A DNA stretch of 64,000 nt from an uncultured Thermodesulfobacteriota bacterium (GTDB taxonomy: Bacteria > Desulfobacterota > Anaeroferrophillalia > Anaeroferrophillales > Anaeroferrophillaceae), in contig CAYZIS010000001.1 in NCBI GenBank assembly GCA_964478545.1, positions 7,943 to 71,942 of the forward strand. Direction: 5' to 3'. The notes below the pieces were generated by a model, which saw only the letters and a program-made list of their open reading frames with translations, had not been told where the DNA came from and did no database searches. Positions within the stretch are counted from its first letter, which is position 1, and the number at the start of each line of letters is the position of its first letter. Made by a program: the position numbers and the translations under genes. Of the stretch, positions 3,109-42,330 are shown piece by piece.

Positions 3109-4500
3109 ATGAATACCAATGCCTCCGAATCCGGTAGAATTCTGCTGGTTGATGATGATCAGAATATCCTTGAAGTCCTGAAAATAAGGCTAGAATCCAT
3201 TGGCTATGCCGTTGTTGACCACCGCTCACCCCGTGTGGCCTTCCAGGCATTTGCCAATGAACCGTTTGACCTGGTCATCACTGATCTGAAGATGGCGGAG
3301 ATGGACGGCCTGACCCTGATGAAGGAAATTCTGGCCCTGAACATAGATATGCCGGTATTGATCCTCACCGCCCATGGAACCATCGCCAATGCGGTTACCG
3401 CAATGAAAGAAGGGGCTTATGGTTATATCACCAAGCCTTTTCAACCCGAAGAGCTGGCCATCCAGGTAAAAAACGCCATCGAAAAATCCCATTTACGGGC
3501 AGAAATCACACGTTTACAAGATATGCTGGAAGATGAACGCAAGAAGCAGTCACCAATTATTTCCACCAGTCCGGCCATGCGCAATGTTATCAAAACCATC
3601 AGCGCCATCAGTAATTCCAATTCGACGGTCATGATTTTGGGTGAAAGCGGTACGGGGAAAGAACTGGTGGCCCGGGAAATCCATCACCGCAGCCCCAGGA
3701 ACCATAAAAACTTTATCGCGGTTAACTGTGGCGCTATCCCGGAAACTTTACTGGAAAGCGAGTTGTTCGGGTATACAAAAGGGGCCTTCACCGGGGCCGC
3801 AAAAAATCATGCCGGCATTTTCCAGCGTGCCGAGGGCGGAACCATTTTCCTGGATGAAATTACGGAAACTTCTCCATCCTTTCAGGTTAAGTTGCTCCGG
3901 GTTCTCCAAGAAAGATGTGTGTTCCCCTTAGGATCCAATCAGGAAGTGGATATTGACGTCCGGATCATTGCCGCCAGCAACCAGGACCTGGAACAGCAGG
4001 TTCAGACAGGAAAGTTTCGCGAGGATCTTTTCTACCGCATTTATGTCATCCCCATCAACCTGCCACCATTGAGAGAACGCCACGAAGACATCCCTCTACT
4101 TGCCCAGTATTTTCTCGAATACTACCGACAGGAATTACATAAAAATACTATCATTGGCTTTCAGCAGTCAACTCTGCAAAAAATGCTGGTCTATCAATGG
4201 CCGGGAAATATCAGGGAACTTGAAAATAAAATCCAGTACGCCCTGGCTGTTTCGAACGGTGAGTTTATCAACCCCGAAGAAATGTTTCCCGTTTTGCCCG
4301 GCAAAGCCCAGAGTCCAGCAACCACCATGCATGATGCAAAAAAACAGTTTGAACGAGATTATATTATCAATGTTCTCAACATAACCAAAGGAAATGTCAG
4401 CCAGGCAGCCCAACTCTCCGGACGCCACCGGGTTGATTTTTACAACCTGATCAAAAAACATCAGATTGATGTGAATGCTTTCCGCCATAAAACTGCATAG
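3109..4500 (+). CDS. sigma-54-dependent response regulator (NtrC family: REC - AAA+ - Fis HTH)
   Basis: 'ILLVDDDQNILEVL' with receiver Asp 'DLVITDLKM'. Walker A 'GESGTGKE'. 'GAFTGA' sigma-54 contact motif. 'ESELFGY'. C-terminal HTH. Confidence 0.9.
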   Translation: MNTNASESGRILLVDDDQNILEVLKIRLESIGYAVVDHRSPRVAFQAFANEPFDLVITDLKMAEMDGLTLMKEILALNIDMPVLILTAHGTIANAVTAMKEGAYGYITKPFQPEELAIQVKNAIEKSHLRAEITRLQDMLEDERKKQSPIISTSPAMRNVIKTISAISNSNSTVMILGESGTGKELVAREIHHRSPRNHKNFIAVNCGAIPETLLESELFGYTKGAFTGAAKNHAGIFQRAEGGTIFLDEITETSPSFQVKLLRVLQERCVFPLGSNQEVDIDVRIIAASNQDLEQQVQTGKFREDLFYRIYVIPINLPPLRERHEDIPLLAQYFLEYYRQELHKNTIIGFQQSTLQKMLVYQWPGNIRELENKIQYALAVSNGEFINPEEMFPVLPGKAQSPATTMHDAKKQFERDYIINVLNITKGNVSQAAQLSGRHRVDFYNLIKKHQIDVNAFRHKTA

Positions 4501-6357: not shown

Positions 6358-6575
6358 GGATAAATCCTTTCGATTTTAGCTGCTAGCTATCAGCTGTTAG
6401 CTTTTAGTAAAACCTCAACTTTCTGACTTTCATGGCCAAAAATACATTACAGGATGTTCGGGCCTGGCTCATAGCCGTGTCCGCCGTGCCTGCCGGCAGG
6501 CACGGCGACAGGCAGGGCTGTTTTTAGAGCAACTCAGAAAGTTAAGCTTGTGCTTTCAGCTTTATACCTTTAGCC
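6358..6575 (+). repeat. Family-1 composite repeat inserted between porA and porB. TTAGCTN heptads 6361-6395, core 6450-6526, ACCTT-type heptads 6545-6575.
   Basis: Contains a perfect palindrome 'GTGCCTGCCGGCAGGCAC' followed by a T-run. Occupies the entire 218-bp porA-porB gap. Confidence 0.8.
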
Positions 6576-7745
6576 TCAAATCCAGATAGTTTCGCTAGTC
6601 GACAGCTCCTCAGCCTGCATGGCAATCTGCTCGATGACTTCCGGAAAGACCTCTTTCCCCCCCAGACTGATAATGACATCATGAACTGCCGGGCGCTCAT
6701 CTTCTTCGTACAGTGCAGCCCGCACTTCCTGGGAAACGGTACCGCCAACCCCGAATGAAACCGCCCGGTTCAAAACAATCAGCCGTTTTATCCCAGAGAC
6801 CAGCCGCGCCAGTTCCCGGCTGGGGAAAGGCCTGAACAGACGCAATTTAAGCAAACCCACAGGATGGCTGTCCTGGCGTAAACGATCAACCGCCACCCGA
6901 ACCGTACCGGTCAGGGCCCCGGAACAACAGAAAATAATTTCCGCATCATCACAACGGTAAGCCTCAAGATGTTCATAACTTCGACCAAAACGCTCGGCAA
7001 ACTGCCGGCAGCCATCAGCCAGGATATCCCCGGCATCTTCCATCGTCCTGGCAATATTTTTTTTCAGCTGATAAAAACCATCCGGAAAGGCGGCAGCGGA
7101 AAAAGAACGGGGATCATCGGTATCAAGGAAATACTGAGGCCGGTAGGGAGGCAGAAAGGCATCCACCTCCTCAGCCGCTGGCACCATCAACGGCTCCATC
7201 GTATGGGAAAGGATGAAACCATCAATCATCACCATCACCGGCAGCAAAATCCGTTCACTTAACCAGTAAGCCTGAATAATGGTGTCCAGAGCTTCCTGGG
7301 CAGTCTCACAATAGATCTGCAGCCAGCCCACATCACGTTGTGACAGGCTGTCACTCTGGTCACACCAGATATTCCAGGGGGCGCCCAGGGCCCGGTTGGC
7401 ATTAACCATCACCAGCGGCATCCTCGCACCGGAAAACCAGTGGAGCAGTTCATGCATCATCGCCAGCCCTTGTGAACTGGTGGCCGTAAACGACCGACTG
7501 CCAGCGGAAACAGACCCTAAGCAGGCGGCTATGGCTGACATTTCAGATTCCACCTTGATAAACTGGCAGGGAAATTCCCCCCGGTCGACCATTTCCGACA
7601 GGATTTCGATAATATGGGTTTGCGGTGTAATGGGGTAGGCCGAAATTACCTGTGGGCGGCAAAGCCTGACCCCATGAGCAACGGCATCACTGCCCATCAT
7701 CATTTCCCTGGACGATTTTTCACCAGGCTTTAATTCACCCTGCAT
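6576..7745 (-). CDS. porA: 2-oxoacid:ferredoxin oxidoreductase alpha subunit, locus 1
   Basis: '[15 protein letters not shown]'. Full alpha-subunit architecture. The start abuts the stop of the upstream fusion gene. Confidence 0.88.
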   Translation of the reverse strand: MQGELKPGEKSSREMMMGSDAVAHGVRLCRPQVISAYPITPQTHIIEILSEMVDRGEFPCQFIKVESEMSAIAACLGSVSAGSRSFTATSSQGLAMMHELLHWFSGARMPLVMVNANRALGAPWNIWCDQSDSLSQRDVGWLQIYCETAQEALDTIIQAYWLSERILLPVMVMIDGFILSHTMEPLMVPAAEEVDAFLPPYRPQYFLDTDDPRSFSAAAFPDGFYQLKKNIARTMEDAGDILADGCRQFAERFGRSYEHLEAYRCDDAEIIFCCSGALTGTVRVAVDRLRQDSHPVGLLKLRLFRPFPSRELARLVSGIKRLIVLNRAVSFGVGGTVSQEVRAALYEEDERPAVHDVIISLGGKEVFPEVIEQIAMQAEELSTSETIWI

Positions 7746-9377
7746 CTAAACATCCTCCTTCATCTCAATTACCGCCCGGGGACAAGAGGCGGCACATAAA
7801 CCACATCCCTTACAGTGATCTTCATCAATGATAACGCTGGTCCCAAAATCTCCCTCAACCAAAGAGATGGCCAGATCAGGACAGAAAAACCAGCAAATTC
7901 CACATCCGGTACAAATACCACAATTAAAACATCTCCCGGCCTCGGCAAAAGCCTCTTCATCATTAAGGGAATGCACCACCTCCGCAAATGAGTGCTGGCG
8001 GCTTGTCGGGTTTTCTTCCACCAGAGAAATGGCTTTCTGCGATTGACAATAATCCAGGTGAAGATCGGCAAAGCTGACAATCCGGACTTCTGCTTCCCCA
8101 GCAGGGAGCTCACCTTCCCAGTCATCTTCCAATGCCAGCCCACAACGGGATAAAATAGTTTTTGCCGCCGCTTTGCCGGAGGCCATTGCCTCCACCACCG
8201 TTGCCGGACCACTGACCAGATCTCCTCCCAGCAGCAAACGCTCATGGTTTAACGCCAAATCGTCCCCTGCCTGCTGGCCAATAGCCACCACCAGACCGTC
8301 GACTTTCAGCTGATCAATAACTTCTCCGGCTTTAATTCCGGAACCATCATCGGGAATCACCTGGCTCAAGATCAGCTGCAACTGTCCATCTTCAGCAACT
8401 ACTCCAGTCACCAGTTGCTGCTGACACAACAAAACTCCTTCCTCCAGCGCCTGTTTTTTCTCATCGCTGTAAGCGGGCATTTCCGCAAAAGTCCGGCGAT
8501 AAATGATCTGCACCTCTTTTCCCAGGCGGCGCAGGGAGCGGGCCACATCCACCGCCACATTACCGCCACCGATGACCCCAAAGGATGATCCCGCCGGAAC
8601 CCCGCCGGTGGCAATATCATGCAACAGCTCCAATCCGGGATAGATCCCTGGTTGTGGCAAAAAATCACCGGGCATCAACGACTGCCCCAACCCCGGAGCC
8701 CGGAAAACATAATCGTATTCCTCCAGTATTTTTTCCAGTTGTTCCAGTTGTATCTCCCGATTACAGCAGAGCTCAATAGGTAATGAATTAACCAGATTAT
8801 CAATTTCCCGGTTCAATATCTCCCGGGGCAAACGGTAAGCGGGAATCCCATAGCGCAGCAATCCCCCGGGGGCAGTCTCTTTTTCATAGATCGTCACCCT
8901 GATTCCCTGACGAGCCAGAAAGGCGGCGCAGGCCAGCCCGGCAGGCCCGCTGCCGATCACCGCCACCCTTTCCGGGCGCAATGCCGGAGGTGCCGGAAAA
9001 GGAATATCGAGACCATAATCACCCAGGAAGCGTTCAACAAAACCGATCTGCACTGCTTGATCGAAATCCTGGCGATTGCAATTTTGCTGGCAGAAATTCG
9101 GACAGACCCGACCGCACACCGCCGGCAACGGATTGAATCTTCGCAGGCGGGCCAATGCCGCCGCCACATCCCGCCGGGACAACTCCCACATATAGCTGGC
9201 AATATCAATATAAAGCGGGCAGGCTACCTGGCAGGGAGCAGTTTTCTCCACCAGTTGGGGACGAAAAAACTTCCAGCTGCCGGTAAGATTTATTTCTGTC
9301 GTGGTGGTGGAAACGGGGAAATCCCACAGGCCGTCCGGCAACTTTTTCCCTTTTATATCAAGAATTTGCATGGGCAT
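7746..9377 (-). CDS. fusion protein: GltD-like NAD(P)H-binding flavoprotein ([4Fe-4S] N-terminus + FAD/NAD(P) Rossmann domains) + C-terminal 2x[4Fe-4S] PorD-like ferredoxin
   Basis: N-terminal Cys motifs 'CQVACPLYIDI...CGRVCPNFC'. Dinucleotide motif 'VAVIGSGPAGLACAAFLARQG...YEKETAPGG'. Second Rossmann 'VIGGGNVAVDVAR'. C-terminal 'CFNCGICTGCGICWFFCP...CKGCGLCAASCP'. The six-frame ORF starts at 9452, but the Met at 9377 or 9371 behind a GGAGG is more plausible because it just overlaps the porG stop. Confidence 0.75.
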   Translation of the reverse strand: MPMQILDIKGKKLPDGLWDFPVSTTTTEINLTGSWKFFRPQLVEKTAPCQVACPLYIDIASYMWELSRRDVAAALARLRRFNPLPAVCGRVCPNFCQQNCNRQDFDQAVQIGFVERFLGDYGLDIPFPAPPALRPERVAVIGSGPAGLACAAFLARQGIRVTIYEKETAPGGLLRYGIPAYRLPREILNREIDNLVNSLPIELCCNREIQLEQLEKILEEYDYVFRAPGLGQSLMPGDFLPQPGIYPGLELLHDIATGGVPAGSSFGVIGGGNVAVDVARSLRRLGKEVQIIYRRTFAEMPAYSDEKKQALEEGVLLCQQQLVTGVVAEDGQLQLILSQVIPDDGSGIKAGEVIDQLKVDGLVVAIGQQAGDDLALNHERLLLGGDLVSGPATVVEAMASGKAAAKTILSRCGLALEDDWEGELPAGEAEVRIVSFADLHLDYCQSQKAISLVEENPTSRQHSFAEVVHSLNDEEAFAEAGRCFNCGICTGCGICWFFCPDLAISLVEGDFGTSVIIDEDHCKGCGLCAASCPRAVIEMKEDV

Positions 9378-9948
9378 AACCTCCATCAACCACAGCAAGC
9401 CGGTATGCTTCTTCCATGGCCTGTCGGTTTTCATCATGTTTAACCGGCACAAAGCGAGGAAGTGCTTCTCTTAAAGTATCCAGGGATACCAAGCCACTAA
9501 CCTTGGCAAAAGCTCCCAGAATCGGGGCATTAACCAGAGGCATGGTCGGGCTCCCCAGGTGGTATCGCAGGGCAACTTCATTCGCATTCACCGTCGCTAT
9601 CCGACAATTTTTGGCCAGCTCCTGGTAAAATGAAGCGGGATGCTCAGTGTTAATCAGAATCAGGCCCCCATCTTTAATGCCGGCATCTACCGCTACCGTT
9701 TCTGCAAGCCGGGCCGCCATCACAATCACATAATCAGGATTCACCACCTGGCTGCGCAGATTGATGAAATGATCGTCCATGCGGACAAAGGCCGCCACCA
9801 GTGCACCCCGACGCTCAGCCCCAAAAGTTGGAAACGACTGGGCAAACTTCCCTTCAAGAAAAAAAGCGTAAGAAAGAACCCTGGAAGCGATGACCGCCCC
9901 TTGTCCTCCGCGCCCGTGAAAGCGTATTTCAAGCATATTCTCCCTCAT
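9358..9948 (-). CDS. porG: 2-oxoacid:ferredoxin oxidoreductase gamma subunit, locus 1
   Basis: 'MLEIRFHGRGGQGAVIASRVL...FPTFGAERRGA'. GGGAGA RBS precedes the start. Confidence 0.85.
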   Translation of the reverse strand: MRENMLEIRFHGRGGQGAVIASRVLSYAFFLEGKFAQSFPTFGAERRGALVAAFVRMDDHFINLRSQVVNPDYVIVMAARLAETVAVDAGIKDGGLILINTEHPASFYQELAKNCRIATVNANEVALRYHLGSPTMPLVNAPILGAFAKVSGLVSLDTLREALPRFVPVKHDENRQAMEEAYRLAVVDGGYAHANS

Positions 9949-12916: not shown

Positions 12917-13268
12917 AACCTAAGCTAAGCAATTAGCTGTTAGCTATCAGCGTTTAGCTTTAAAAAATCAAGGCATTACGTTTATTAGCAACTCAACGTT
13001 CTGACTTATTTTAAAAACAGCTAAAAAAAATTCCAGGAATGTTCCGGCATGGCTCTCACTCATTCTCGCCGGCTATCCATGGCCGGCTTCCGAGGCGTCC
13101 GCCGTCAATCACCATCCAGGTGATTCGTTCGGCGGCCAAAACCGGCAGGCTGGGTAGACACGGCTATGAGCCAAGCCCAAACATCCTGTAAGGTCCCTGG
13201 CAATACAAGCCAGAAAGTTAAGATTAAACTAATAGCTAACGACTAACTGCTTGATTCAGGAGGAAAAC
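12917..13268 (-). repeat. Family-1 composite repeat, long-form core in reverse orientation. Core 13034-13178, heptad arms 12917-12975 and 13205-13250.
   Basis: The reverse complement of the core aligns with 42193-42326, including the internal GAATCACC/GGTGATTC hairpin and the GCCGGCC-ATGGA-GGCCGGC hairpin. Fills the whole gap up to the ilvD RBS. Confidence 0.8.
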
Positions 13269-14927: not shown

Positions 14928-14999
14928 CGGTGCAGGGGGCATTACCAGGGAATAAGTTTTTTAAGTTTTATAATCTCACAAAAAGTTGCGAAACTGATG

Positions 15000-15110
15000 G
15001 CACAGTAAAAGCTTCATATTCGAGGCAGGCAAAACCTGAGTCGTGATGCGTACTTATAGTACGTTGTAATGGCGAAGGTTGCAGCCTAACGAAGAAGATG
15101 GAGCTTTTTA
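15000..15110 (+). repeat. Family-3 conserved ~110-bp element, copy 1 (TGGCACAGTAAAAGCTTCATATTCGAGGCAGGCAAAACCTGAG...GAAGGTTGCAGCCTAACGAAGAAGATGGAGC)
   Basis: Other copies at 17995-18110 (+) and 25440-25560 (-). Conserved GG-N10-GC at the 5' end. Internal hairpin GCGTACT-TAT-AGTACGT. Confidence 0.7.
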
Positions 15111-17994: not shown

Positions 17995-18110
17995 CAAAAC
18001 CACTGGCACAGTAATAGCTTCATAATCGAGGCAGGTAAAACCTGAGCCATGAGGCGCACTTTACCGGACGCTGCAAGGGTGAAGGTTGCAGCATAACGAA
18101 GAAGATGGAG
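17995..18110 (+). repeat. Family-3 element, copy 2
   Basis: 'TGGCACAGTAATAGCTTCATAATCGAGGCAGGTAAAACCTGAGCC...GAAGGTTGCAGCATAACGAAGAAGATGGAGC'. Confidence 0.7.
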
Positions 18111-18130
18111 CTAGTACGAAGCCAGCAAAA

Positions 18131-20038: not shown

Positions 20039-20310
20039 ACTGACCTCCCCAAGCTAGTGGTTGTCTATGATCATCAGCTCATCCGGAAACAGAAATTTCC
20101 GGGTAAGCACCAATTAAAACATGAATTTAATCACCTATTCCTGTACGGTAAAATCACTGTCCTCCAGCCTTATCAACCACCTCTATAAAGATGCATACAA
20201 TATTGACATTCATAAACCACAAACACCGTTCATGTCAAGAACATATACTCAGTCAATGCTCGTCAGTCAGAATCCGCCAGAATCATATTCATTGCAGAGA
20301 TAATGAACAA

Positions 20311-20562
20311 TTGCACAAAGTCAAACCGGGTTTCACTATCAGTATCATCATCATTTTTCCCTTGACATTTTCACCTTCCCCTTATAAGAAACAATTGCAC
20401 AAAGTCAAACCGGGTTTCACTATCAGTGTCATCGTCATTTTTCCCTTGACATTTTCACCTTCCCCTTATAAGGAGAGATTGCACAAAGTCAAACCGGGTT
20501 TCACTATCAGTGTCATCATCATTTTTCCCTTGACATTTTCACCTTCCCCTTATAAGGAGAGA
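20311..20562 (+). repeat. 3 x 84-bp perfect-period tandem repeat. Each unit carries the palindromes AAACCGGGTTT and CCTTATAAGG plus a TTGACA.
   Basis: Unit starts at 20311, 20395 and 20479. Lies in the divergent region between the two acyl-CoA synthetase genes. Confidence 0.85.
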
Positions 20563-22880: not shown

Positions 22881-22938
22881 TTCTTTCAGTTCAAAAAAAT
22901 CTTGTATGTGATTGCAAGACCTGACCCCCAGGCAAAAA

Positions 22939-23955: not shown

Positions 23956-24169
23956 CAATCACTCCCGCCGCGAAATCATCACGAATATTGTCAAAGTCTC
24001 CAGAACTCACAGAATATCATTATTTACCCTGTAATATCGTATAGTTACATACTAAACGCCATTCCATTACGCTTTAGTGCAAAAACATCGCCAACCCAAT
24101 TTATTATGGTATAGTCCTTGCTTTCTTAGTCCACGATGGTTACAATTATACGATAATGAGGATTATTCC

Positions 24170-25426
24170 ATGATCAAAAATCTGTGGCATTACTGGCAGC
24201 GGGGTAAAAATAGTTTCATGGACATGTTCGCTTCCGGCAGTGAGAATCACCACTCACTGCTTCCTATACGGCAACTGGCTTTTTCCGGCATCAGTTTGAC
24301 CGAAAGCGAAATAACCTTTCCCATCCCTAACGACAACCACAAAAGCCCTCAGCGCTCCCAGCCATTACGGTTCTTACAAACATTTTTCGATGCCATCACC
24401 AAAGTTCAGGATGTCAGCCTGTTATCCACTGCCGGCCGGCTGCTGTACCAACTGGCAGATAGAGAAAGCATCATTTTCGTCGAATACCGGCAGGGAAAAC
24501 TGATAATCCACACTGCCAGTCGCCAACTAAGCCGGAAGAATGATTTCGGGCGGCGGCTTATTCAATCAAGCCTGGCAACTTTCCGGAAACTCCCACAGCC
24601 CGCCAGTGAAAACGACATACGATTTGAGATTTTAAGCGAACTTGGCAATCTTTCCTGGCAGGCGAAAACCATCATCAGTCCGCTTCCAGGCCCCCATAAA
24701 ATTGGCCCGGACCACTTCCTGGCCGCCTTTATCATTGGGAAAAAGCGGGAATCCAGGCCGCAATGGTCCCGGGAAACCGATCAACTGCTCCATTTTTGCC
24801 TCCAGCATGTGGCCATCCGCATGGGGGAAATCAATGCCCTGGAAACCCTACGGCTCAATGCCAACACCGACCTCTTAACCGGCGTTCATAATCGCCGTTT
24901 TTTCCATGAGGTTTTAAGCCGGGAAAGCGAACGGTCGAATCGCCATAATCAACCCTTGTCCCTGATCATCCTGGATATTGATCATTTCAAAGTCATTAAT
25001 GATACTTTCGGCCATCTGGCAGGTGATCAGGTTTTAAGGGAGATCGGCCGGATCACCCGGGAAAGTATCCGCACCATCGATATGGTCTGCCGTTATGGCG
25101 GGGAGGAATTTGCCATCATTCTGCCACAAACCGAGCTGGAAGCCGCCAGTCTGATAGCCGAGCGGCTGCGCACCAGCATTGCTGAATTTCCTTTTTCCAC
25201 CGGAGTGGAAAGCCCCCTGATGGTCACCGCCAGCCTGGGAGTGGCCTGCTGGCACGACAGCGGCTATCTCAGCAAGCAGGGAACAGAACTAATACAGGCG
25301 GCTGATCGAGCGCTCTACGCGGCCAAAGATACCGGCCGCAATCGAACCTGCACGGCCCCGGAACCCCAGGGGAAATCACCTGGAAAGGGCAGAAAATCGG
25401 TTGTCTTTGTTGCTCCTGCATGCTAA
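24170..25426 (+). CDS. diguanylate cyclase (N-terminal sensory/GAF-like region + GGDEF)
   Basis: 'RRFFHEV...LIILDIDHFKVINDTFGHLAGDQVLREI...RYGGEEFAIILPQT'. Confidence 0.85.
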   Translation: MIKNLWHYWQRGKNSFMDMFASGSENHHSLLPIRQLAFSGISLTESEITFPIPNDNHKSPQRSQPLRFLQTFFDAITKVQDVSLLSTAGRLLYQLADRESIIFVEYRQGKLIIHTASRQLSRKNDFGRRLIQSSLATFRKLPQPASENDIRFEILSELGNLSWQAKTIISPLPGPHKIGPDHFLAAFIIGKKRESRPQWSRETDQLLHFCLQHVAIRMGEINALETLRLNANTDLLTGVHNRRFFHEVLSRESERSNRHNQPLSLIILDIDHFKVINDTFGHLAGDQVLREIGRITRESIRTIDMVCRYGGEEFAIILPQTELEAASLIAERLRTSIAEFPFSTGVESPLMVTASLGVACWHDSGYLSKQGTELIQAADRALYAAKDTGRNRTCTAPEPQGKSPGKGRKSVVFVAPAC

Positions 25427-25439
25427 AATTCAGCCTATG

Positions 25440-25560
25440 ATGGCTATGAAAAACTCTATCTTCGGCCTTAGGCTGCAACCTTCGTCATTACAACGTACTT
25501 GTCAGTACACCTCATGACTCAGATTTTGCCTGCCTCGAATATGAAGCGTTTACTGTGCCA
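25440..25560 (-). repeat. Family-3 element, copy 3 (reverse orientation)
   Basis: The reverse complement reads 'GATGGCACAGTAAACGCTTCATATTCGAGGCAGGCAAAATCTGAGTCATGAGGTGTACTGACAAGTACGTTGTAATGACGAAGGTTGCAGCC'. The hairpin covaries (GTACT-GACA-AGTAC). Confidence 0.7.
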
Positions 25561-25594
25561 TCGGCTTTACGACTTTTTACGAAAGTATCAACCT

Positions 25595-26194
25595 ATGGAT
25601 GAGAATGATCGTCGAAATTATAATCGCTTGAATGTTTCCCTTTTATTCAGCTGGCAATCCCTGACCGCCGAGCTGGAAGAAGGGGTACTGCCGGCTCTCG
25701 CCACCGCCGACAACCCTTTTGCTTCCTGGTTTATGGAGCTGCGTCCCCCACTACCTCCCAACTCCGGGGAGAGTGATGAATTAGGCAGCTATTACCGTAA
25801 GTTTAGCAAATATCTGGAAATTATGGAGCGGAAAATCTCCCTGCTCAGCCAGATTATCTTTCAACCGCCGATGCAGGAATTCTTCCGGCAGCAGCCACTT
25901 CCCTTAACCCTGAGTGCCACCGGGCTTTCCTTCCCGGCAGCCGAACCGCTGGATTCCGGCACCAGAGTGCTGCTGACCTTCTTCCTGCCCTATGCGGCCC
26001 AACTGGTCAGGGTCAGGGCTCTCATTCTACGGTCCACGATCCGGGAAAGTCGGAACCGGAAACAGGCCTACCTGATCGCCGCCCAGTTTATCAATCCGGG
26101 AATGGAAATAGAAGATGAAATCGCCCGCTTTATTATTTTAAGCGAAAGAAAACAACTGCGCCAAGCCCACCGGCACCATGAAGAAAACGCTTAA
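25595..26194 (+). CDS. PilZ domain protein (c-di-GMP receptor)
   Basis: 'RRNYNRL' (RxxxR) and 'LSATGLSF' (DxSxxG-like) motifs. Adjacent to the GGDEF gene. The start is uncertain: 25499, 25541 or 25595. Confidence 0.6.
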   Translation: MDENDRRNYNRLNVSLLFSWQSLTAELEEGVLPALATADNPFASWFMELRPPLPPNSGESDELGSYYRKFSKYLEIMERKISLLSQIIFQPPMQEFFRQQPLPLTLSATGLSFPAAEPLDSGTRVLLTFFLPYAAQLVRVRALILRSTIRESRNRKQAYLIAAQFINPGMEIEDEIARFIILSERKQLRQAHRHHEENA

Positions 26195-26873
26195 AACCAG
26201 CAGTCGACGGCGAGAACCGGCGGCCAAAAAGCGATCCTGGGTAACCTCCCTGCTTTTCTTTACTTTTGGGGTTGTCCTGACCTTTCTCGTGCTTTCCTCT
26301 CTTCCCCATCTGATTCCAAAAAAGCTACAGTCAACCATCCTGGTAAAACAATGGCAGCAAAAGTATTGGCCGACCACCAGAACCACGACCGCCAAACGAC
26401 AATCACCGTCTGCTCCTAAGAAAACTGCCGCCCGGCCAGCGGTAAAAAAACCGGCACCCACCACCCTTTACGTGACTCTCTACAAGGCCAGTCCCGACTA
26501 TGACGCTTTGACCCACAGCAGCAAATTGCTGAAAGCACCAAAAAAAGGAAAACTGCAACTAGCCCGGATAATTTTTGCCGAACTGACCCGCGATGGATCA
26601 AAAACTAAATCGCCCCTGCCACCGAGAGTCCGACTGCGCTCGGTTTCTTTTTCCGGCCGGCGCATCACCCTGGACCTGTCCAAAGAAATCATCAGCGGCC
26701 TGGCCAATACCGGCAGCAGTGATGAAGTGCTGGCTGTCTACGGCCTGGTGAACACCTACCTCAAGAATTTCTCCAACTACAGCGAAGTCCTGATTACGGT
26801 GGACGGCCACCTGGTCAAAACCCTTGCCGGACATATCGAAATCAACAAACCTCTGACCTTTTTTGAGGGATAA
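26178..26873 (+). CDS. membrane-anchored GerMN domain protein
   Basis: N-terminal TM 'WVTSLLFFTFGVVLTFLVL'. Lys/Pro-rich linker. C-terminal 'ITVDGHLVKTLAGHIEINKPL'. Confidence 0.55.
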   Translation: MKKTLKTSSRRREPAAKKRSWVTSLLFFTFGVVLTFLVLSSLPHLIPKKLQSTILVKQWQQKYWPTTRTTTAKRQSPSAPKKTAARPAVKKPAPTTLYVTLYKASPDYDALTHSSKLLKAPKKGKLQLARIIFAELTRDGSKTKSPLPPRVRLRSVSFSGRRITLDLSKEIISGLANTGSSDEVLAVYGLVNTYLKNFSNYSEVLITVDGHLVKTLAGHIEINKPLTFFEG

Positions 26874-26879
26874 GTCGAA

Positions 26880-27202
26880 TGGATGAAAACTATCAACAAC
26901 TGATCAAAGATTGCTTCTGGGAGTATGATGTTACCCCCGCTGACCTAAACAAAATGATCACCTCAGGCGATGCGCGGGAAAAGTAATTTCTTTTCGAAAA
27001 AATCCTGGCCAACAGTATGCACTTGTTTCGTGATTTAAAAATTTTCCCCAAGGATACTCTCGAAATTTTAATCAACAATTATAAAGTTCCGAACTTCAAT
27101 CAGGAATACCTGTCCAAACGAAAAAATATGGTTGAATACCATTTTCTTAAACAGGAATTGAAGTGGACCATCGTCTTTCAAATTGTTCCATATGCTAGCT
27201 AA
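26880..27202 (+). pseudogene. hypothetical gene interrupted by an in-frame TAA stop (26983-26985)
   Basis: 'MDENYQQLIKDCFWEYDVTPADLNKMITSGDAREK*FLFEKILANSMHLFRDLKIFPKD...' reads straight through in one frame. Confidence 0.5.
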
Positions 27203-27588
27203 GGTCGCATTGGAATCTGGAAGATGTTCCATGAAGTTGAGCATAAAAAAAGCGGTAAATGGACCATTATGTAATTTATATTCACTTCATTGGTTTTTCC
27301 CGCACCATTTTGCAAACATCTCCCGATACGCGATCTCGACCTTGCGGGCAAAACCCGGTTCATCCATAAGTTGAGGAAGCATGGATATTGCGATTGACAT
27401 CTGCAGTGATTGCTGTCATCCTTGACGAATCTGAACGTAACTGGATTACCAGTTGTACGGCTGGGAAAACACTTATTGGGTCTGGTTCCATTCCCTGGGA
27501 ACTGGGAAATTGGCAATGCTTTCTCTACTCTGTTTAGGCAAAACAGGTTGACATTTGAGGAAGCCCGGTGTTGTACATCCAGGTTTAA

Positions 27589-27984
27589 TCCCTTCCACCG
27601 CGGCAATGTGGCATTGCAAGACCTGACCCCTACCATGCTATTTGGGCATCTGAAGCGGATGGATCTCTCCAGGTTGCAAAACATCTTTTTGAAAAAAAAG
27701 ATTATTCTTATGCGCTTTTCTTTGGCCATCTTGCTATTGAAAAAATCATAAAAGCGGTACTTGTCAAAAATACCAATCAACAGGTGCCTCGTTCTCATAA
27801 TTTATTGAGATTAGCCCAAGAAGCTCAGATAGAAATAACTGGAGAACAGAAGCGTACTCTAATAAGGATTACAGCTTTTAATCTTGAATCAAGATACCCT
27901 GACTACAAAAAAGAATTCAGGGAAAAATGCACCTTGCAGTTCACTGCAATAGAACTGGAAAAAATCAAAGAGGTTTTTATATGA
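27589..27984 (+). pseudogene. HEPN domain protein (toxin half of a HEPN/MNT pair) lacking an in-frame start codon
   Basis: 'WASEADGSLQVAKHLFEKKDYSYALFFGHLAIEKIIKAVL...VPRSHNLLRLAQEA' (Rx4-6HN HEPN motif). The frame is open from 27589, and the first ATG/GTG/TTG is at 27784. Confidence 0.6.
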
Positions 27985-28427
27985 CTGAAATCGAATCTAT
28001 AGTTTTGAAAAATGTCCAATTGTTTCTAGATAAACTCCGCCGCACAGGATTCCATATTTCCAAGGCCTATATTTTTGGCTCCTATGCCAAAGGACAAGTA
28101 AAGGGTGTTGCAACGAATCGGCTAACCTATTGAAATCATAGGTTTTTTAGCGAAAAACTCCATTCGGGATTTTCCCGGAAACACTAATAAAATCAATGAC
28201 TTACGGCGATCATTGCAACACCCTTAAGTAGATAAGTGGAGTGATATAGATGTGGCAATTGTTTCTCCCCAGATAAGCAACGACCGTTTTGAAGAGCGCA
28301 TAAGACTGACTGAACTGGCAATATCTGTCGATGATCGGATTGAACCGTTGCCATTCAACCCTGACAGTTTTAGCGATGATGATCCGTTTGTACAACAAAT
28401 TAAAAACGAAGGATTAGCAATCATTTG
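27981..28427 (+). pseudogene. MNT-type nucleotidyltransferase (antitoxin half) split by a 125-bp MITE. Fragments are 27981-28100 and 28226-28427.
   Basis: 'IFGSYAKGQV' | insertion | 'DKWSDIDVAIVSPQ...'. ATGA start/stop overlap with the HEPN gene. Removing 28101-28230 restores 'GSYAKGQVDKWSDIDVAIV'. Confidence 0.8.
28101..28225. mobile_element. MITE-like insertion with 13-bp perfect TIRs (AAGGGTGTTGCAA / TTGCAACACCCTT) and a 5-bp TSD (AAGTA at 28096-28100 and 28226-28230)
   Basis: TIRs and TSD are read directly from the sequence. The host ORF is restored when the element is removed. Confidence 0.8.
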
Positions 28428-28789
28428 ATTTGGGTGCGGCTCTTTTAGAGCACAGACAAAACCCTTATGAATAAACGCTCTCTCCTTCTTATCGAATTCA
28501 CCATCAATATTGGCTACTGTTGAATAACTCTTTATTTCACCGCCTATTTTTCAAAATAAAATACCTCCTTAAAACGGTAAATATGCGAATTGATCCACCA
28601 GCTTTATGCTTTCCCAACAAGCTGGTAACTCAGTGGGTTTTTTAGGCATGGGGGTGCCGGACGTGATCGGAATTAGCGCTGTTCCCTACGCCCAAAATTA
28701 CGGCATTTAAGGTGTAATGGTCAAGGAGATTGACCTTGCGAGGCAGGCGAGGGGATACCATGGTTAATGGCATCCAGAAAAAAATCGGC

Positions 28790-29300
28790 GGTGGCAAAGG
28801 CTCAATGATTTTCTATCCCAGGCTAGACAGAATGAAGAAAAGAAACAGTTTTTTGATGAACAGGAACTGAGTTTTATCGGCATTAACTCATTTGCCGATC
28901 TGGTTCGTCTGATTATCCACGATTACCACAGCAACTTCAAACTTGATCTGGTAACCTTGACCTTGGTCGATCCGGGATACGAATTACGGCGTATGGTTGA
29001 AGGGACGGAACCATAGCTGGGGTAATACCAGGAACTTATTTTTTTTACCGGAACCAACCTCTCTGAATGATCTTTATGGTTTACAGACAGATCCTATCTT
29101 GGACATTTACAGCCATGAAAAGCATGCTTTTTTATTTCCAGGTGGGTCTCGGAGGCTGTCATCTGTAGTGCTACTGCCTTTGATACGGCGTGGAACACTG
29201 ATCGGCAGTCAACAACCTTGGCAGTTATCAGGAAGAACGCTATACTGCCGATGGTTAGCCACTTGGCAACCGTGGGTCTCAAAAATTTGGACAATATGTT
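28790..29300 (+). pseudogene. possible decayed GAF-domain regulator remnant (frame-shifted fragments)
   Basis: Fragments 'DEQELSFIGINSFADLVRLIIHDYHSNFKLDLVTLTLVDPGYELRRMVEG' and 'FPGGSRRLSSVVLLPLIRRGTLIGS' lie in different frames. Confidence 0.3.
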
Positions 29301-29583
29301 AAACTCTAAATTCTTTACAACAGAATAAAAGGATTATGATCAAAAAGAGAAAATAATTCAGTTCCGTATTCAAAGTGAAAATTGCTTTAGTGTGTAAAAG
29401 TCAAGTACCTTCCGGACAATTTGATGTTGGCAGTGGCAATGTCTCATTTTTGTCAATATTCCCAAACTTAACCTTCTCTGCAATTATCTTTATGCCGTGC
29501 TGTGATTAAGTGACCATATACTACAATTCTTTTTGGAAAGCACAAGAGACCAACAAGCTGAAAAATCACCATAGTTACAAAAG

Positions 29584-29620
29584 AAAAAGGCCGTTTCTCT
29601 CACAAGAAACGGCCTTGAAG
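29584..29620 (-). terminator. rho-independent terminator downstream of tRNA-Asn (minus strand)
   Basis: AAGGCCGTTTC-loop-GAAACGGCCTT with a T-run on the minus strand. Confidence 0.7.
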
Positions 29621-29626
29621 CAGTTT

Positions 29627-29702
29627 TGGCTCCCCGGGTAGGATTCGAACCTACGACCTAGTGGTTAACAGCCACCCGCTCTGCCAGTTGAGCTACCGAG
29701 GA
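29627..29702 (-). tRNA. tRNA-Asn (anticodon GTT), 76 nt with encoded CCA
   Basis: Cloverleaf folded manually from the reverse complement: acceptor stem TCCTCGG/CCGGGGA, D-arm GCTC/GAGC, anticodon loop CTGTTAA, T-arm GTAGG/CCTAC (T-loop TTCGAAT), CCA end. Confidence 0.9.
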
Positions 29703-29768: not shown

Positions 29769-32174
29769 TTATCCTTTGAGTTCCACCACTGTCACCGCCT
29801 GCCCACCCTGATCGGCAGGTGGATGATAATAGTCTGAGATATAAGGCAGTTGCCGCAGAAACTCATGGATTCCCTTGCGAAGTCGACCGGTCCCAAAACC
29901 ATGAATAATTTCGACTTTTTCCATCCCGGCCATCATTGCCTGATCCAGATAACCTTCCAGCTCTTCCCGGGCTTCATCCACCCGTTTACCAATCAGATTA
30001 AGCGTGGGCAGTGGCGAGCCACCACTGGAAGGTACACTTACCTTAACACTCCCCGGCTTTTTAATATCCCCTTTGCTGAGGATGGAAGTAATTCTACCCA
30101 TCGGCATACTGAGCCGCAGGTTCCCGGACATACAGAGAGAAACCAGCTGTTTATGCAGGTCAACGGCTTCTACTTCACCAACTTGCCGGCTGCCGACCAG
30201 CGTTACCCGATCACCAACTGAGAGACCCCCTAAATCAATAGATTTTTGTGGACGTTCCGGCACGGTGGGTAACAGTTTGCCCACCTCCTGCTTTATTTCA
30301 GCAAATTCATGACGTATTTTCCCGGTTTTTATTCTTACAAAGGGAACATCATCCATCTCCTGTTGCTTTTTCTCCAACACGGCCAGCATAGGCTTAAATT
30401 CAGCTTCCGCTTTACTGACAATCTCGGCCAGCTGCTGACTGGCAGTCTGGCGCAGGTTTTCTTGCTGTTCCAGGAGCATTTCCCGCTCTTTTCGGCATTG
30501 CTCACGTACATGAAAAGCCTCCTGCTTCAATTTGAACAGCTCCAACTCTTTATTCTGCACCTGTACCAGGCGTTTTTCCAGTTTTTCAGCCATCACCACT
30601 ACCTGATCATGGTCCCGATCAAGATAACTGCGGGCCCGGACAATGACAGAACTATTAAATTTCAGCAGCCGGGCAACCTGGAAGGCATTACTCAGGCCGG
30701 GAACCCCATACTGCAAACGGTACAATGGCTGCAATGATTTTGCGTCAAATGAAACCGCCACGCTTTCAACCCATGGCCGTTCGTAGGCATAGGCTTTGAC
30801 ATTATTATAATGGGTGGTAACCAGAAAAGCGGATTTCCGTTCATGCAACTCATCCATCACCGCCATGGCCAGGGCCGCGCCTTCCTGAGGATCAGTACCG
30901 GCACCAAGCTCATCAAATAAAACCAGGGACCGAGTATCACAACAACGAAGGATGGTATCAATATGATGTAAATGGCCGGAAAAGGTGCTGACATCCTCAC
31001 TGATACTTTGTTCATCACCAATATCGGCCAGAACCTCACTGAACAATGGAATGCTACTTTCAGCCGCTACCGGCAGTGGCAAAGCACAACGGGCCATCAG
31101 ACTGACCAGCCCCAAAGTCTTGAGCGCCACAGTTTTCCCACCGGCATTGGCACCTGAGACCACTAACCCCTGAATGCCGGGTTCAAAATCAATATCCACC
31201 GGAACCACCATTTCAGGACCCTTATCAGTTAAAAGTAATGGATGCCTGGCCTGTTTCAGAAAAAAGCCCCCAGTCCATTCGGTCAATAGCTTAGGCGCTG
31301 AGCCCCCAATCTCGAGACCATAAAGAGCTTTTGCCTGAATCTGGTCAAGAAAAAACACCTGATCCAACACCCTGATGATCTCCCGGGTTTCGGCCCGCAG
31401 GTGGCCGGCAATCATTTTGAGAATCCTGATTTCCTCTTCCTGCTCCTCCTGCTGCAAAATCCTTAGGTTGTTGTTGAGGCCGATAGTTTCCATCGGTTCA
31501 ACAAAAAAACTCATCTGGGTCCTGGACTGATCATGAATGATACCTGAAAAATAAGTGCGGAAATTCAGTTTAACCGGTATCACGTAGCGGTTGTTGCGCT
31601 GGGTAATCAGGTGATCCTGAATAATAGGCTGGTAGGCGGGATTCTGAAGATGAGCTTCAAGGATAGTGTTAAGCTTCCGGCGGGTATTTTTGATCTGCTG
31701 GCGGATATCAGCCAGAGCGTGGCTGGCCGAATCCTTCAATTCCTCCCGCTCATCAAAACAACTCTCGATCAAATCCATCAACGGCCTAAATGGGCGAATC
31801 CCCTCAAATAAGTTCCCCAAGAGGGAAAAGCGCTCATCCATGGCGGCGGCATAGTGGGTAATCTTTTCCAGCCGGCGGAAGGTTTCGGCTATTGAGATCA
31901 ACATCTGGGGAGGAAGGTAGGTTTCTTCAACCCGAATAAGTTCAAGCTCAGCAGCAAGATTTCGCACTCCCGACAAGGGAACGGGACCATATTCGGCTAC
32001 CAGTTCCATGAACCGGGAAATCCGGCCTAATCTGGCCGGCAATTCAGGAAATAAAGAGGAGGAAAGGGGGGAAAGCTGACGGAGGGCATCCTGGGCATCC
32101 CTGGTACAGGCATGCCGGGCAACTCGTTCGGCCAGCCAAGGAAATTCCAGCACCCGGGCCGCGTGAGATTCCAT
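29769..32174 (-). CDS. mutS2: endonuclease MutS2 (MutS domains + C-terminal Smr)
   Basis: Walker A 'GANAGGKTVALKT'. 'DELGAGTDP'. C-terminal Smr 'LIGKRVDEAREEL...IHGFGTGRLR'. Confidence 0.9.
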   Translation of the reverse strand: MESHAARVLEFPWLAERVARHACTRDAQDALRQLSPLSSSLFPELPARLGRISRFMELVAEYGPVPLSGVRNLAAELELIRVEETYLPPQMLISIAETFRRLEKITHYAAAMDERFSLLGNLFEGIRPFRPLMDLIESCFDEREELKDSASHALADIRQQIKNTRRKLNTILEAHLQNPAYQPIIQDHLITQRNNRYVIPVKLNFRTYFSGIIHDQSRTQMSFFVEPMETIGLNNNLRILQQEEQEEEIRILKMIAGHLRAETREIIRVLDQVFFLDQIQAKALYGLEIGGSAPKLLTEWTGGFFLKQARHPLLLTDKGPEMVVPVDIDFEPGIQGLVVSGANAGGKTVALKTLGLVSLMARCALPLPVAAESSIPLFSEVLADIGDEQSISEDVSTFSGHLHHIDTILRCCDTRSLVLFDELGAGTDPQEGAALAMAVMDELHERKSAFLVTTHYNNVKAYAYERPWVESVAVSFDAKSLQPLYRLQYGVPGLSNAFQVARLLKFNSSVIVRARSYLDRDHDQVVVMAEKLEKRLVQVQNKELELFKLKQEAFHVREQCRKEREMLLEQQENLRQTASQQLAEIVSKAEAEFKPMLAVLEKKQQEMDDVPFVRIKTGKIRHEFAEIKQEVGKLLPTVPERPQKSIDLGGLSVGDRVTLVGSRQVGEVEAVDLHKQLVSLCMSGNLRLSMPMGRITSILSKGDIKKPGSVKVSVPSSGGSPLPTLNLIGKRVDEAREELEGYLDQAMMAGMEKVEIIHGFGTGRLRKGIHEFLRQLPYISDYYHPPADQGGQAVTVVELKG

Positions 32175-32621: not shown

Positions 32622-32803
32622 TTTTCACCTCTTCTCCTTTAACCCAAACTTTCTGACTTGTGTTACCAGAATACATTATCAGGATGTTCGGGCCTGGCTC
32701 ATAGCCGTGTCTGCCGGCAGGCAGGCACGCCGGCAGGCAGGGCTATTTTTTCATAACTCAGAAAGTTGAGTTTTAAGTATTTGGGGAATAATAGCCAACT
32801 GCC
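32622..32803 (+). repeat. Family-1 composite repeat (core 32680-32750, flanking AACTTTCTGA hairpins)
   Basis: 'CAGGATGTTCGGGCCTGGCTCATAGCCGTGTCTGCCGGCAGGCAGGCACGCCGGCAGGCAGGGCTATTTTTTC'. Confidence 0.8.
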
Positions 32804-41970: not shown

Positions 41971-42169
41971 GAGCTACTCTCAACCTCCTGTTCGGCGCAT
42001 TTTTCAATGCGCTGGTATTTAATGTGACAAATTAAAACAAGTAGTTAGCCGGAACTGGCTGTTTTTGTCAATTATTTTTTTCTCTTTTAGTAACATACTC
42101 CTGAATTTCTGTCACTCTTTTCAGTACCCCCTTGAGGGGTATAAAAAACAAGAAAATTCCACTTTCCGT

Positions 42170-42330
42170 CTAGCATTGTCGGGAATACATTTCAGGATGT
42201 TCGGGCTTGGCTAGCAGCGGGTTTGGCTGCCGAACGAATCACCAGGACGGTGATTCGCGGCGGACGCCTCGGAGCCGGCCATGGACGGCCGGCGAGAATG
42301 AGCGAAAGCCATGCCGGAACATCCTCAGAA
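42170..42330 (+). repeat. Family-1 repeat, long form (core 42193-42326)
   Basis: 'CAGGATGTTCGGGCTTGGCTAGCAGCGGGTTTGGCTGCCGAACGAATCACCAGGACGGTGATTCGCGGCGGACGCCTCGGAGCCGGCCATGGACGGCCGGCGAGAATGAGCGAAAGCCATGCCGGAACATCCTC'. The left flank 'GCATTGTCGGGAATACAT' is shared with copy 1. Confidence 0.8.

Follow-up and report, generated by a model that had tools for sequence, protein, structure and literature searches.

What fills the 2753 bp between the GerMN gene and tRNA-Asn in this 64,000-nucleotide stretch of the genome of an uncultured Thermodesulfobacteriota bacterium (hereafter the window), and from how many sources did it come? The initial annotation, made from the letters alone, had described this islet as an old integrated element in mutational decay at the tRNA 3' end, with nearly every reading frame damaged. 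The damage is real: the interval contains no homologue-supported intact open reading frame (ORF), and each piece carries its own identifiable lesion. The islet is also accessory, truly decayed and AT-rich (GC 0.405, vs 0.501 and 0.503 in the flanking 10 kb on each side), but the idea of a single element at tRNA-Asn is not supported, given the native tRNA terminator, the lack of attachment (att) repeats and integrase, and the mixed origins of the contents. We consider it likely that the interval is a composite graveyard of non-functional genes at a synteny breakpoint, with relics of at least three unrelated units, namely an AbiEii module, a cassette of HEPN and minimal nucleotidyltransferase (MNT) genes, and a diguanylate cyclase gene. 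This reading is based on the observed lesions, on orthology established piece by piece, on the differing neighbourhoods of the two borders in relatives and on the intact native terminator (coordinates in Table 1). To judge from its sequence, the islet probably expresses none of these pieces as a functional protein.

The leftmost piece is a small gene that several relatives carry intact. The 103-aa protein of one of them (L011; loci fetched for comparison bear L numbers) matches the window with 74% identity (tblastn, E = 3e-48) over 26879-27172. The corresponding frame reads MDENYQQLIK...REK, meets a TAA, resumes as FLFEKILANS... and stays open to a new stop at 27200-27202. This in-frame TAA, originally placed at 26983, lies at 26984-26986 and is a C>T nonsense mutation, the intact homologues having CAA or CAG in the DNA alignment, which also reveals a 12-nt deletion near the 3' end of the window gene. 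In L011/L012 and L005-L010 the intact gene encodes 103-106 aa, starts 5-6 nt past GerMN and runs into the beginning of a 228-aa AbiEii-family gene, to which it is presumably translationally coupled; the AbiEii protein of L011 is recognized by both PADLOC (AbiEii, E = 1e-15) and Pfam (PF08843). The window still resembles L011 at 27156-27172 but no longer beyond, the alignment ending with GTGGACC at 27170, and tblastn with both relatives' AbiEii proteins retrieves nothing from the window. A two-gene AbiEii module was probably inherited at the GerMN end, where AbiEii would have been deleted after codon 2 before the partner acquired its nonsense codon. The arrangement in relatives resembles that of AbiE, a type IV toxin-antitoxin (TA) and abortive infection system, in that an AbiEii-family nucleotidyltransferase is preceded by an overlapping small gene, situated exactly where the window has its nonsense-interrupted ORF. 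It differs from AbiE in that the partner has only 103-106 aa and does not match the winged helix-turn-helix antitoxins of AbiEi type, and in that the window has no AbiEii toxin gene and a partner reduced to a pseudogene. The small protein matches nothing in Pfam, NCBIfam or PADLOC, hence no AbiEi model, and is called an antitoxin because of its position only.

The second unit begins with a HEPN gene of the PF05168 type (69.8 bits, cut-off 22) that, as first reported, has no start codon. Its frame is open from 27601 and contains no ATG, GTG or TTG before the GTG at 27784, that is, for 61 codons; initiation at this GTG would cost the protein its first two helices. In intact relatives the gene starts 8 codons upstream of the W codon (27643 in the window) with MNQKKIID, preceded by an AAGGAAG Shine-Dalgarno sequence. 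Whereas these copies open with ATGAATCAAAAAAAGATTATTGATTTTTGG (MNQKKIIDFW), the window instead reads ...ATTGCAAGACCTGACCCCTACCATGCT followed directly by ATTTGGGC, and has lost the first 8 codons, the ribosome-binding site and the leader or promoter. The intact relatives reveal a true 5' truncation, and another origin of the missing start, loss of one nucleotide behind the out-of-frame ATG at 27635, was discarded. Where at least 22 of 23 relatives agree, the window shows three substitutions of its own, all beside the truncation. Direct inspection of the 114-aa product finds PRSHNL but no Rx4-6H motif, no R being followed by H at a spacing of 4-6. Although PF05168-type HEPNs often depart from Rx4-6H and may use another His (PMC3710099), the status of this protein as a toxin is unproven because the canonical RNase motif is missing.

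Immediately upstream of the truncation point lies a short repeat. The initial annotation had noticed a 25-bp motif shared with position 22905, and this is a genuine repeat, consisting of an exact 18-mer at 27613 and 22911-22928 with extra flanking matches at both sites. We assign it to the repetitive extragenic palindromic (REP) sequences of a system with a REP-associated tyrosine transposase (RAYT) because inverted copies flank a RAYT-like Y1 transposase in L005/L006. These two loci contain 5-6 copies each (in 6-10 kb) in both orientations, compared with two in the 64-kb window and none in several other relatives. In L005, where REPs occur at 3665-3732, 7528-7566 (minus), 8444-8461 (plus) and 9526-9543, the second and third bracket the transposase gene (7595-8437), whose product scores 78.4 bits (E = 4.8e-22) against the NCBIfam model 'REP-associated tyrosine transposase', just below the cut-off of 80. 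Many copies of the 18-mer are likewise found across L005-L010, bracketing the RAYT-like Y1 transposase. As in known REP/RAYT (REPIN) systems, the repeat is short and intergenic, occurs in both orientations and, in relatives, flanks a single Y1 transposase (PMC3116915, PMC3337134). Unlike in those systems, the 64-kb window lacks a RAYT gene and contains just two REPs, and the REP, here and in L005, abuts truncated gene 5' ends rather than lying in neutral spacers. In L005 it replaces the 5' end of the AbiEii partner, giving it an ATG and its first 7 codons (MIARPDP...). The HEPN truncation was probably caused by REP/RAYT activity or by recombination at the REP, and a minor reading would make this a recurrent process of the lineage, with REP/RAYT activity trimming TA-type genes at their 5' ends time and again (HEPN here, the AbiEii partner in L005).

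The MNT gene, whose start overlaps the HEPN stop, suffered a different accident. The initial annotation had proposed that it is split by a miniature inverted-repeat transposable element (MITE), and uninterrupted relatives do align straight over the insertion site. Once the insertion is removed, the gene matches NTP_transf_2 (E = 4.8e-10, 40.1 bits, cut-off 21) and, below the 60-bit cut-off, the NCBIfam MntA model NF047752 (37.1 bits, E = 2.3e-9). The repaired motif reads GS-YAKGQVDKWS-DID, in agreement with the GSX10DXD signature, and the element splits it after V and shifts the frame by +1. Flanking the element is a direct AAGTA duplication (28096-28100 and 28226-28230), a 5-bp target-site duplication because the alignments of uninterrupted cassettes to the two sides of the insertion overlap by 4-5 nt. 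With its 125 bp, 13-nt terminal inverted repeats, 5-bp target-site duplication, absence of any ORF and precise insertion relative to intact homologues, the element resembles a MITE, and it folds into a long hairpin (-41.5 kcal/mol). It differs from typical MITEs in that one copy was seen and no parental or autonomous insertion sequence was found: a second copy is absent from the window, from 618 kb of fetched loci and from viral contigs. The break of the Logan contig inside the element at 28128 hints at further copies in that sample. Conserved MNT positions show no window-specific changes. The initial annotation had suggested that toxin activity was perhaps lost or altered once the antitoxin was disrupted, a succession that the sequence does not record. 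If the HEPN was toxic, its truncation should, as a matter of logic rather than observation, have preceded or accompanied the disruption of MNT, because an active toxin could not outlive the loss of its antitoxin. The cassette's inactivation looks recent, because it has few changes besides its two lesions.

A metagenome scan returned 80 loci. The whole HEPN-MNT cassette aligns in 25 of them at 82-92% nucleotide identity (88-92% for the best 19), with similarity spanning window positions 27641-27642 to the MNT stop, at 28426-28431. The neighbourhood varies: copies with 88-92% identity lie in 16 upstream and 9 downstream contexts that differ from one another, and of 30 such loci a single one is near a tRNA. 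The cassette also has a GC content of 0.374, vs 0.481 for the window. Judging from these contexts and its sequence conservation, HEPN-MNT is a separate, horizontally circulating and promiscuous cassette found in at least 16 unrelated contexts. It would have reached the islet as a circulating unit, lost its 5' end beside the REP and had its MNT catalytic motif hit by the 125-bp element. Mobility and great abundance are known for the HEPN/MNT family (PMC2701414, PMC7641770). The pair resembles the type VII TA system HepT-MntA in its two overlapping genes encoding a HEPN and a minimal nucleotidyltransferase, its GSX10DXD signature and its MntA match (E = 2.3e-9). It differs in having a PF05168-type HEPN without Rx4-6H, an MntA score under the cut-off and both genes inactivated, and in placing HEPN first, whereas MNT is reported to lie 5' 'almost always' (PMC3710099). 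Neutralization in HepT-MntA proceeds via AMPylation (PMC7641770), a mechanism that may be carried over to the window pair only by analogy because of the missing Rx4-6H and the HEPN-first order. Intact cassettes are present in L020-L047 (e.g., L029 5687-6548, L037 672-1533 and L028 3075-3950). About ten intact copies share a 57-nt leader opening with GTTCGGCGGCGAG and seven a trailer of ~125 nt ending in ...CGCCGAAC, the ends of leader and trailer being inverted 8-mers. It is conceivable, if rather doubtful, that HEPN-MNT is the cargo of a self-inserting unit of ~0.87 kb with inverted ends GTTCGGCG...CGCCGAAC, i.e., a TA-carrying miniature transposable cassette, of which the window would hold a relic with both ends trimmed; empty sites or target duplications for this unit could not be found. 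We also considered an integron cassette, since GTTCGGC/GCCGAAC resemble attC cores, and rejected it: the loci show no arrays, large genes of ordinary kinds adjoin the cassette, and conservation with the cassette does not extend to what follows GCCGAAC. The HEPN-MNT trailer of L026, from a different organism, contains another MITE-like insertion of ~190 bp (~830-1020) with inverted ends CAGAGATCAT...ATGATCTCTG.

The third unit lies closest to the tRNA. The frame-shifted GAF-like fragments first noticed at 28790-29300 are a real pseudogene, more exactly the sensor half of a diguanylate cyclase. Their multi-frame reconstruction is 44% identical to residues 15-187 of P0140, a 380-aa DUF484/GAF-GGDEF protein (pairwise E = 7e-43). 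The pseudogene changes frame four times (0>1 near 28800, 1>2 near 29010, 2>0 near 29208 and 0>1 near 29253) and has a TAG at 29014-29016, after ...MVEGTEP. An exhaustive HMMER search with its single-frame ORF 28997-29299 gave six hits (best E = 1.3e-5), five of them proteins of 365-390 aa, all with DUF484, GAF and GGDEF domains by Pfam. A word-indexed homologue search with the reconstructed product found nothing, and Pfam and NCBIfam returned for it GAF_2 only (E = 0.07). The GGDEF domain (~190 aa) is gone, the corresponding part of P0140 matching by tblastn only a separate gene at 24077-25426 in the window. The cyclase gene would have been reduced to its frameshifted sensor domain, and its decay is probably older than the inactivation of HEPN-MNT because its lesions are many. 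The right end of the islet would then consist of this decayed gene and the native tRNA flank.

How these units came to lie together can be approached through the relatives of each border. Identity to the window was, for GerMN, 83% (L011/L012), 82% (L005-L010), 68% (L014) and 53% (L103/L104) and, for MutS2, 94% (L015), 89% (L016/L017), 84% (L100), 81% (L102), 77% (L101) and 61% (L018). On the left, HGD-D, GGDEF, PilZ and GerMN form a conserved block. In L014 and L103/L104, fliC-flaG-fliD-fliS follow GerMN directly; L011/L012 have, after GerMN, the small ORF, AbiEii and a small two-gene pair before flagellin, and L005/L006 a RAYT gene, the small ORF, AbiEii and Fic before flagellin, in both cases without a tRNA. 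These arrangements mark GerMN-fliC as the ancestral neighbourhood and the DNA 3' of GerMN as a place where accessory genes turn over; the 64-kb window itself contains no flagellar genes. On the right, his genes, YqeY, MutS2 and tRNA-Asn form a second conserved block, beyond which the sequence differs in every relative. After tRNA-Asn, L015 has a large serine recombinase, L018 a PEP-CTERM protein, L016/L017 a serine recombinase that is frameshifted and joined to a DUF772 fragment, followed by SurA_N and cytochromes, and L100 (6120-9173) genes for an ImuB/UmuC-like polymerase, a UmuD/LexA-like Peptidase_S24 and a RAYT-like Y1 transposase (330 aa, with a DnaA_C-like tail). L101 has Peptidase_C93 and no tRNA. 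The islet also marks a synteny breakpoint derived in this lineage, since none of the relatives examined has the neighbours that GerMN and tRNA-Asn have here. As the initial annotation had supposed, the block is accessory; its left part matches an islet between GerMN and fliC that has no tRNA. Two conserved blocks, one ending in GGDEF-PilZ-GerMN and the other in YqeY-MutS2-tRNA-Asn, would have been joined in this lineage at ends where accessory genes also turn over in relatives. A rearrangement from one variable site to the other (deletion or inversion) probably made the join, perhaps with the participation of REPs.

The tRNA itself invites another reading, in which a single mobile element carrying HEPN-MNT and other genes integrated at the 3' end of tRNA-Asn and has since lost its integrase and att sites to decay. 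The tRNA 3' end does face the AT-rich islet, and the flank of this tRNA 3' end, a kind of site put forward from the outset as a classic integration target, is variable in the lineage. Homology of the window to L015 and L016/L017 stops exactly at the tRNA CCA, beyond which foreign DNA with large serine recombinase genes or pseudogenes begins. Such genes flank tRNA-Asn in three contigs representing two distinct sequences: in L015 (12549-13331, minus) the gene lies directly against the tRNA 3' end, and in L016/L017 (L016 5642-6860, minus) it has a frameshift, and a DUF772-type transposase fragment stands in place of its N-terminus. A serine rather than a tyrosine recombinase at a tRNA site is unusual. 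Clearly, the tRNA-Asn flank has been used by integrating DNA in sister lineages. In the window, by contrast, ~55 bp beside the tRNA, including its terminator hairpin, are common to L102 and L018, and this end represents the un-inserted state because the native terminator is shared with those two relatives; the hairpin is present as a variant in L100 and absent after tRNA-Asn in L015, L016 and L017. A direct repeat of the tRNA 3' end, which the initial annotation had proposed to look for, is absent from the entire 64 kb, whether 30 nt are compared allowing 5 mismatches, 22 nt allowing 3 or 16 nt allowing 1, and the window yielded no integrase or recombinase gene or remnant. The islet's left end has its orthologue in the tRNA-free GerMN-fliC islet, the gene nearest the tRNA is a cyclase sensor pseudogene rather than typical island cargo, and HEPN-MNT copies elsewhere are not linked to tRNAs. 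The islet shares with tRNA-linked genomic islands its AT-rich accessory DNA at a tRNA 3' end and a tRNA that receives recombinase insertions in relatives, and differs from them in its missing integrase and att repeat, its intact native tRNA flank and its separately derived contents. Integration of one element is, on this evidence, unlikely, and we favour instead the juxtaposition of independently acquired and separately decayed units at a breakpoint.

It is very improbable that the stop, the frameshifts or the junction of GerMN and tRNA-Asn arose from sequencing error or chimeric assembly. The sequence does come from metagenome assemblies, and the short-k Logan contig breaks in the 125-bp element; up to that end, at 28128, the contig is nevertheless base-identical to the window, and a 54.5-kb ENA MEGAHIT contig, which like the window contig covers the islet from end to end, shows no difference at all. 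In the other assemblies, which possibly share reads and of which Logan extends only to 28128, the stops and frameshifts are the same and in that sense reproducible. Moreover, the two MNT halves match intact genes and are separated by an insertion with a proper target duplication, the islet has no repeat long enough to mislead an assembler, and its lesions go beyond homopolymer slips, with a base substitution and large deletions among them. We find it equally hard to believe that the region still functions, whether through a HEPN translated from a non-canonical start or another transcript, through expression of the MNT halves or of an antisense ORF, or as a regulatory or RNA-encoding spacer. 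The HEPN frame is intact past its truncation and little diverged, and gene callers have annotated a minus-strand ORF of 193-199 aa in public assemblies. Against this, HEPN lacks a Shine-Dalgarno sequence and, over 61 codons, any ATG, GTG or TTG, the catalytic motif of MNT is split, the tRNA is the only Rfam match, and promoter-like sites are not enriched (4 found vs 6.1 expected). The antisense ORF has no family, no homologue and no Pfam hit on record, and is probably a false gene call.

Several points nevertheless weigh against a composite origin at a breakpoint. All the relatives are fragmentary metagenome contigs. The closest, L015, can be read no further than 0.9 kb past the tRNA, and no contig with the GerMN side of that genome was found. 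In GCA_054029575.1 the GerMN and MutS2 contigs both end at these very sites, so that the two could be adjacent there, yet L016, which encodes an identical MutS2, continues into SurA_N and cytochrome genes; a MutS2 scan of the genome collection gave two contigs, both ending at MutS2. Only one copy of the 125-bp element was seen, and its mobility is deduced from its structure. Finally, three stretches of the islet, together ~1 kb, have no counterpart among protein families, RNA families or the fetched loci, and remains of an integrative element could be concealed there. Plasmid, phage and viral-contig collections queried with the islet, the HEPN gene and the 125-bp element gave no match.

Table 1. 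Features of the islet between GerMN and tRNA-Asn and of its borders, in window coordinates.
Feature	Position	Strand	Remarks
GerMN	26178-26873	+	left boundary
Small-protein pseudogene	26879-27169	+	found by tblastn with the L011 103-aa protein
AbiEii-family remnant GTGGACC	27164-27170	+	first two codons; alignment with L011 and L005
Sequence without match	27171-27612	.	442 bp, non-coding-looking; no Pfam or PDB match for translations, no similarity to fetched loci
Minus-strand ORF, 193-199 aa	27199-27798	-	gene-caller annotation in public assemblies; antisense to HEPN 5' end
REP-type repeat ATTGCAAGACCTGACCCC	27613-27630	+	18 nt; 10 bp upstream of HEPN truncation point
5'-truncated HEPN gene (PF05168 type)	27641-27984	+	Pfam E = 2.8e-19; TGA stop 27982-27984
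MNT 5' part	27981-28100	+	ATG overlaps HEPN stop (ATGA); ends inside GSX10DXD, after GSYAKGQV
125-bp MITE-like insertion	28101-28225	.	inverted ends AAGGGTGTTGCAA / TTGCAACACCCTT, 13-nt perfect; no coding capacity
MNT 3' part	28231-28428	+	DKWSDIDVAIVS...NEGLAII; stop 28426-28428
Sequence without match	28429-28766	.	338 bp; no family or locus match
DUF484/GAF sensor-domain pseudogene of diguanylate cyclase	28767-29325	+	multi-frame reconstruction compared with P0140
Sequence without match	29326-29570	.	between cyclase pseudogene and native tRNA flank; no match
Native intrinsic terminator of tRNA-Asn	29587-29616	-	13-bp stem, then T-run; AAGGCCGTTTCT...AGAAACGGCCTT
tRNA-Asn (GTT)	29627-29702	-	ARAGORN; Rfam 67.6 bits; position as initially annotated; 3' end toward islet
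MutS2	29769-32174	-	beyond tRNA-Asn

The islet is ordinary in that its ingredients (TA loci in decay, REP/RAYT repeats, MITE insertions and a hypervariable tRNA flank) are each familiar, but it is a well-resolved case from an uncultured lineage. Its description keeps the broken genes and the spurious 193-aa antisense ORF from receiving functional labels and flags a synteny breakpoint in an uncultured lineage of hydrothermal sediments. It also provides a clean, datable case of the death of TA-type modules, with four kinds of lesion within 1.6 kb, and illustrates that adjacency to a tRNA and low GC are insufficient to call a tRNA-integrated island. The sole lead to something new is the HEPN-MNT cassette, 90% conserved in at least 16 contexts and with possible inverted ends.

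Three other resemblances in the islet were examined and discarded. The minus-strand peptide ...PGFARKVEIAYREMFAKWC (27287-27400) has no Pfam or PDB support as a relic of the C-terminus of a GT41/SPINDLY-type glycosyltransferase, Pfam and PDB likewise gave no support to a HemN-like fragment at 28606-28710, and a tblastx match linking 27319-27366 with sequence at the 3' side of GerMN in relatives was attributed to chance, being out of frame. Elsewhere in the window, sequences at 25449-25594, 14964-15108 and 17996-18128 form inverted repeats (the first against the other two, 90-115 nt, 77-88% complementary) that may represent another family of miniature elements; the arm at 25449-25594 includes the 5' end of PilZ, the gene that immediately precedes GerMN. 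A dispersed family of intergenic repeats with the core AGGATGTTCGGGCTTGGCTCATAGCCGTGTCCGCCG... occurs in both orientations at 403-511, 2937-2993, 6414-6543, 13142-13194, 32644-32773 and 42157-42238, one copy being ~470 bp upstream of the MutS2 start. An AT-rich stretch at 20300-20556 consists of three tandem copies of an 84-bp unit (89-nt copies at 84-bp spacing) that are 94-96% identical.

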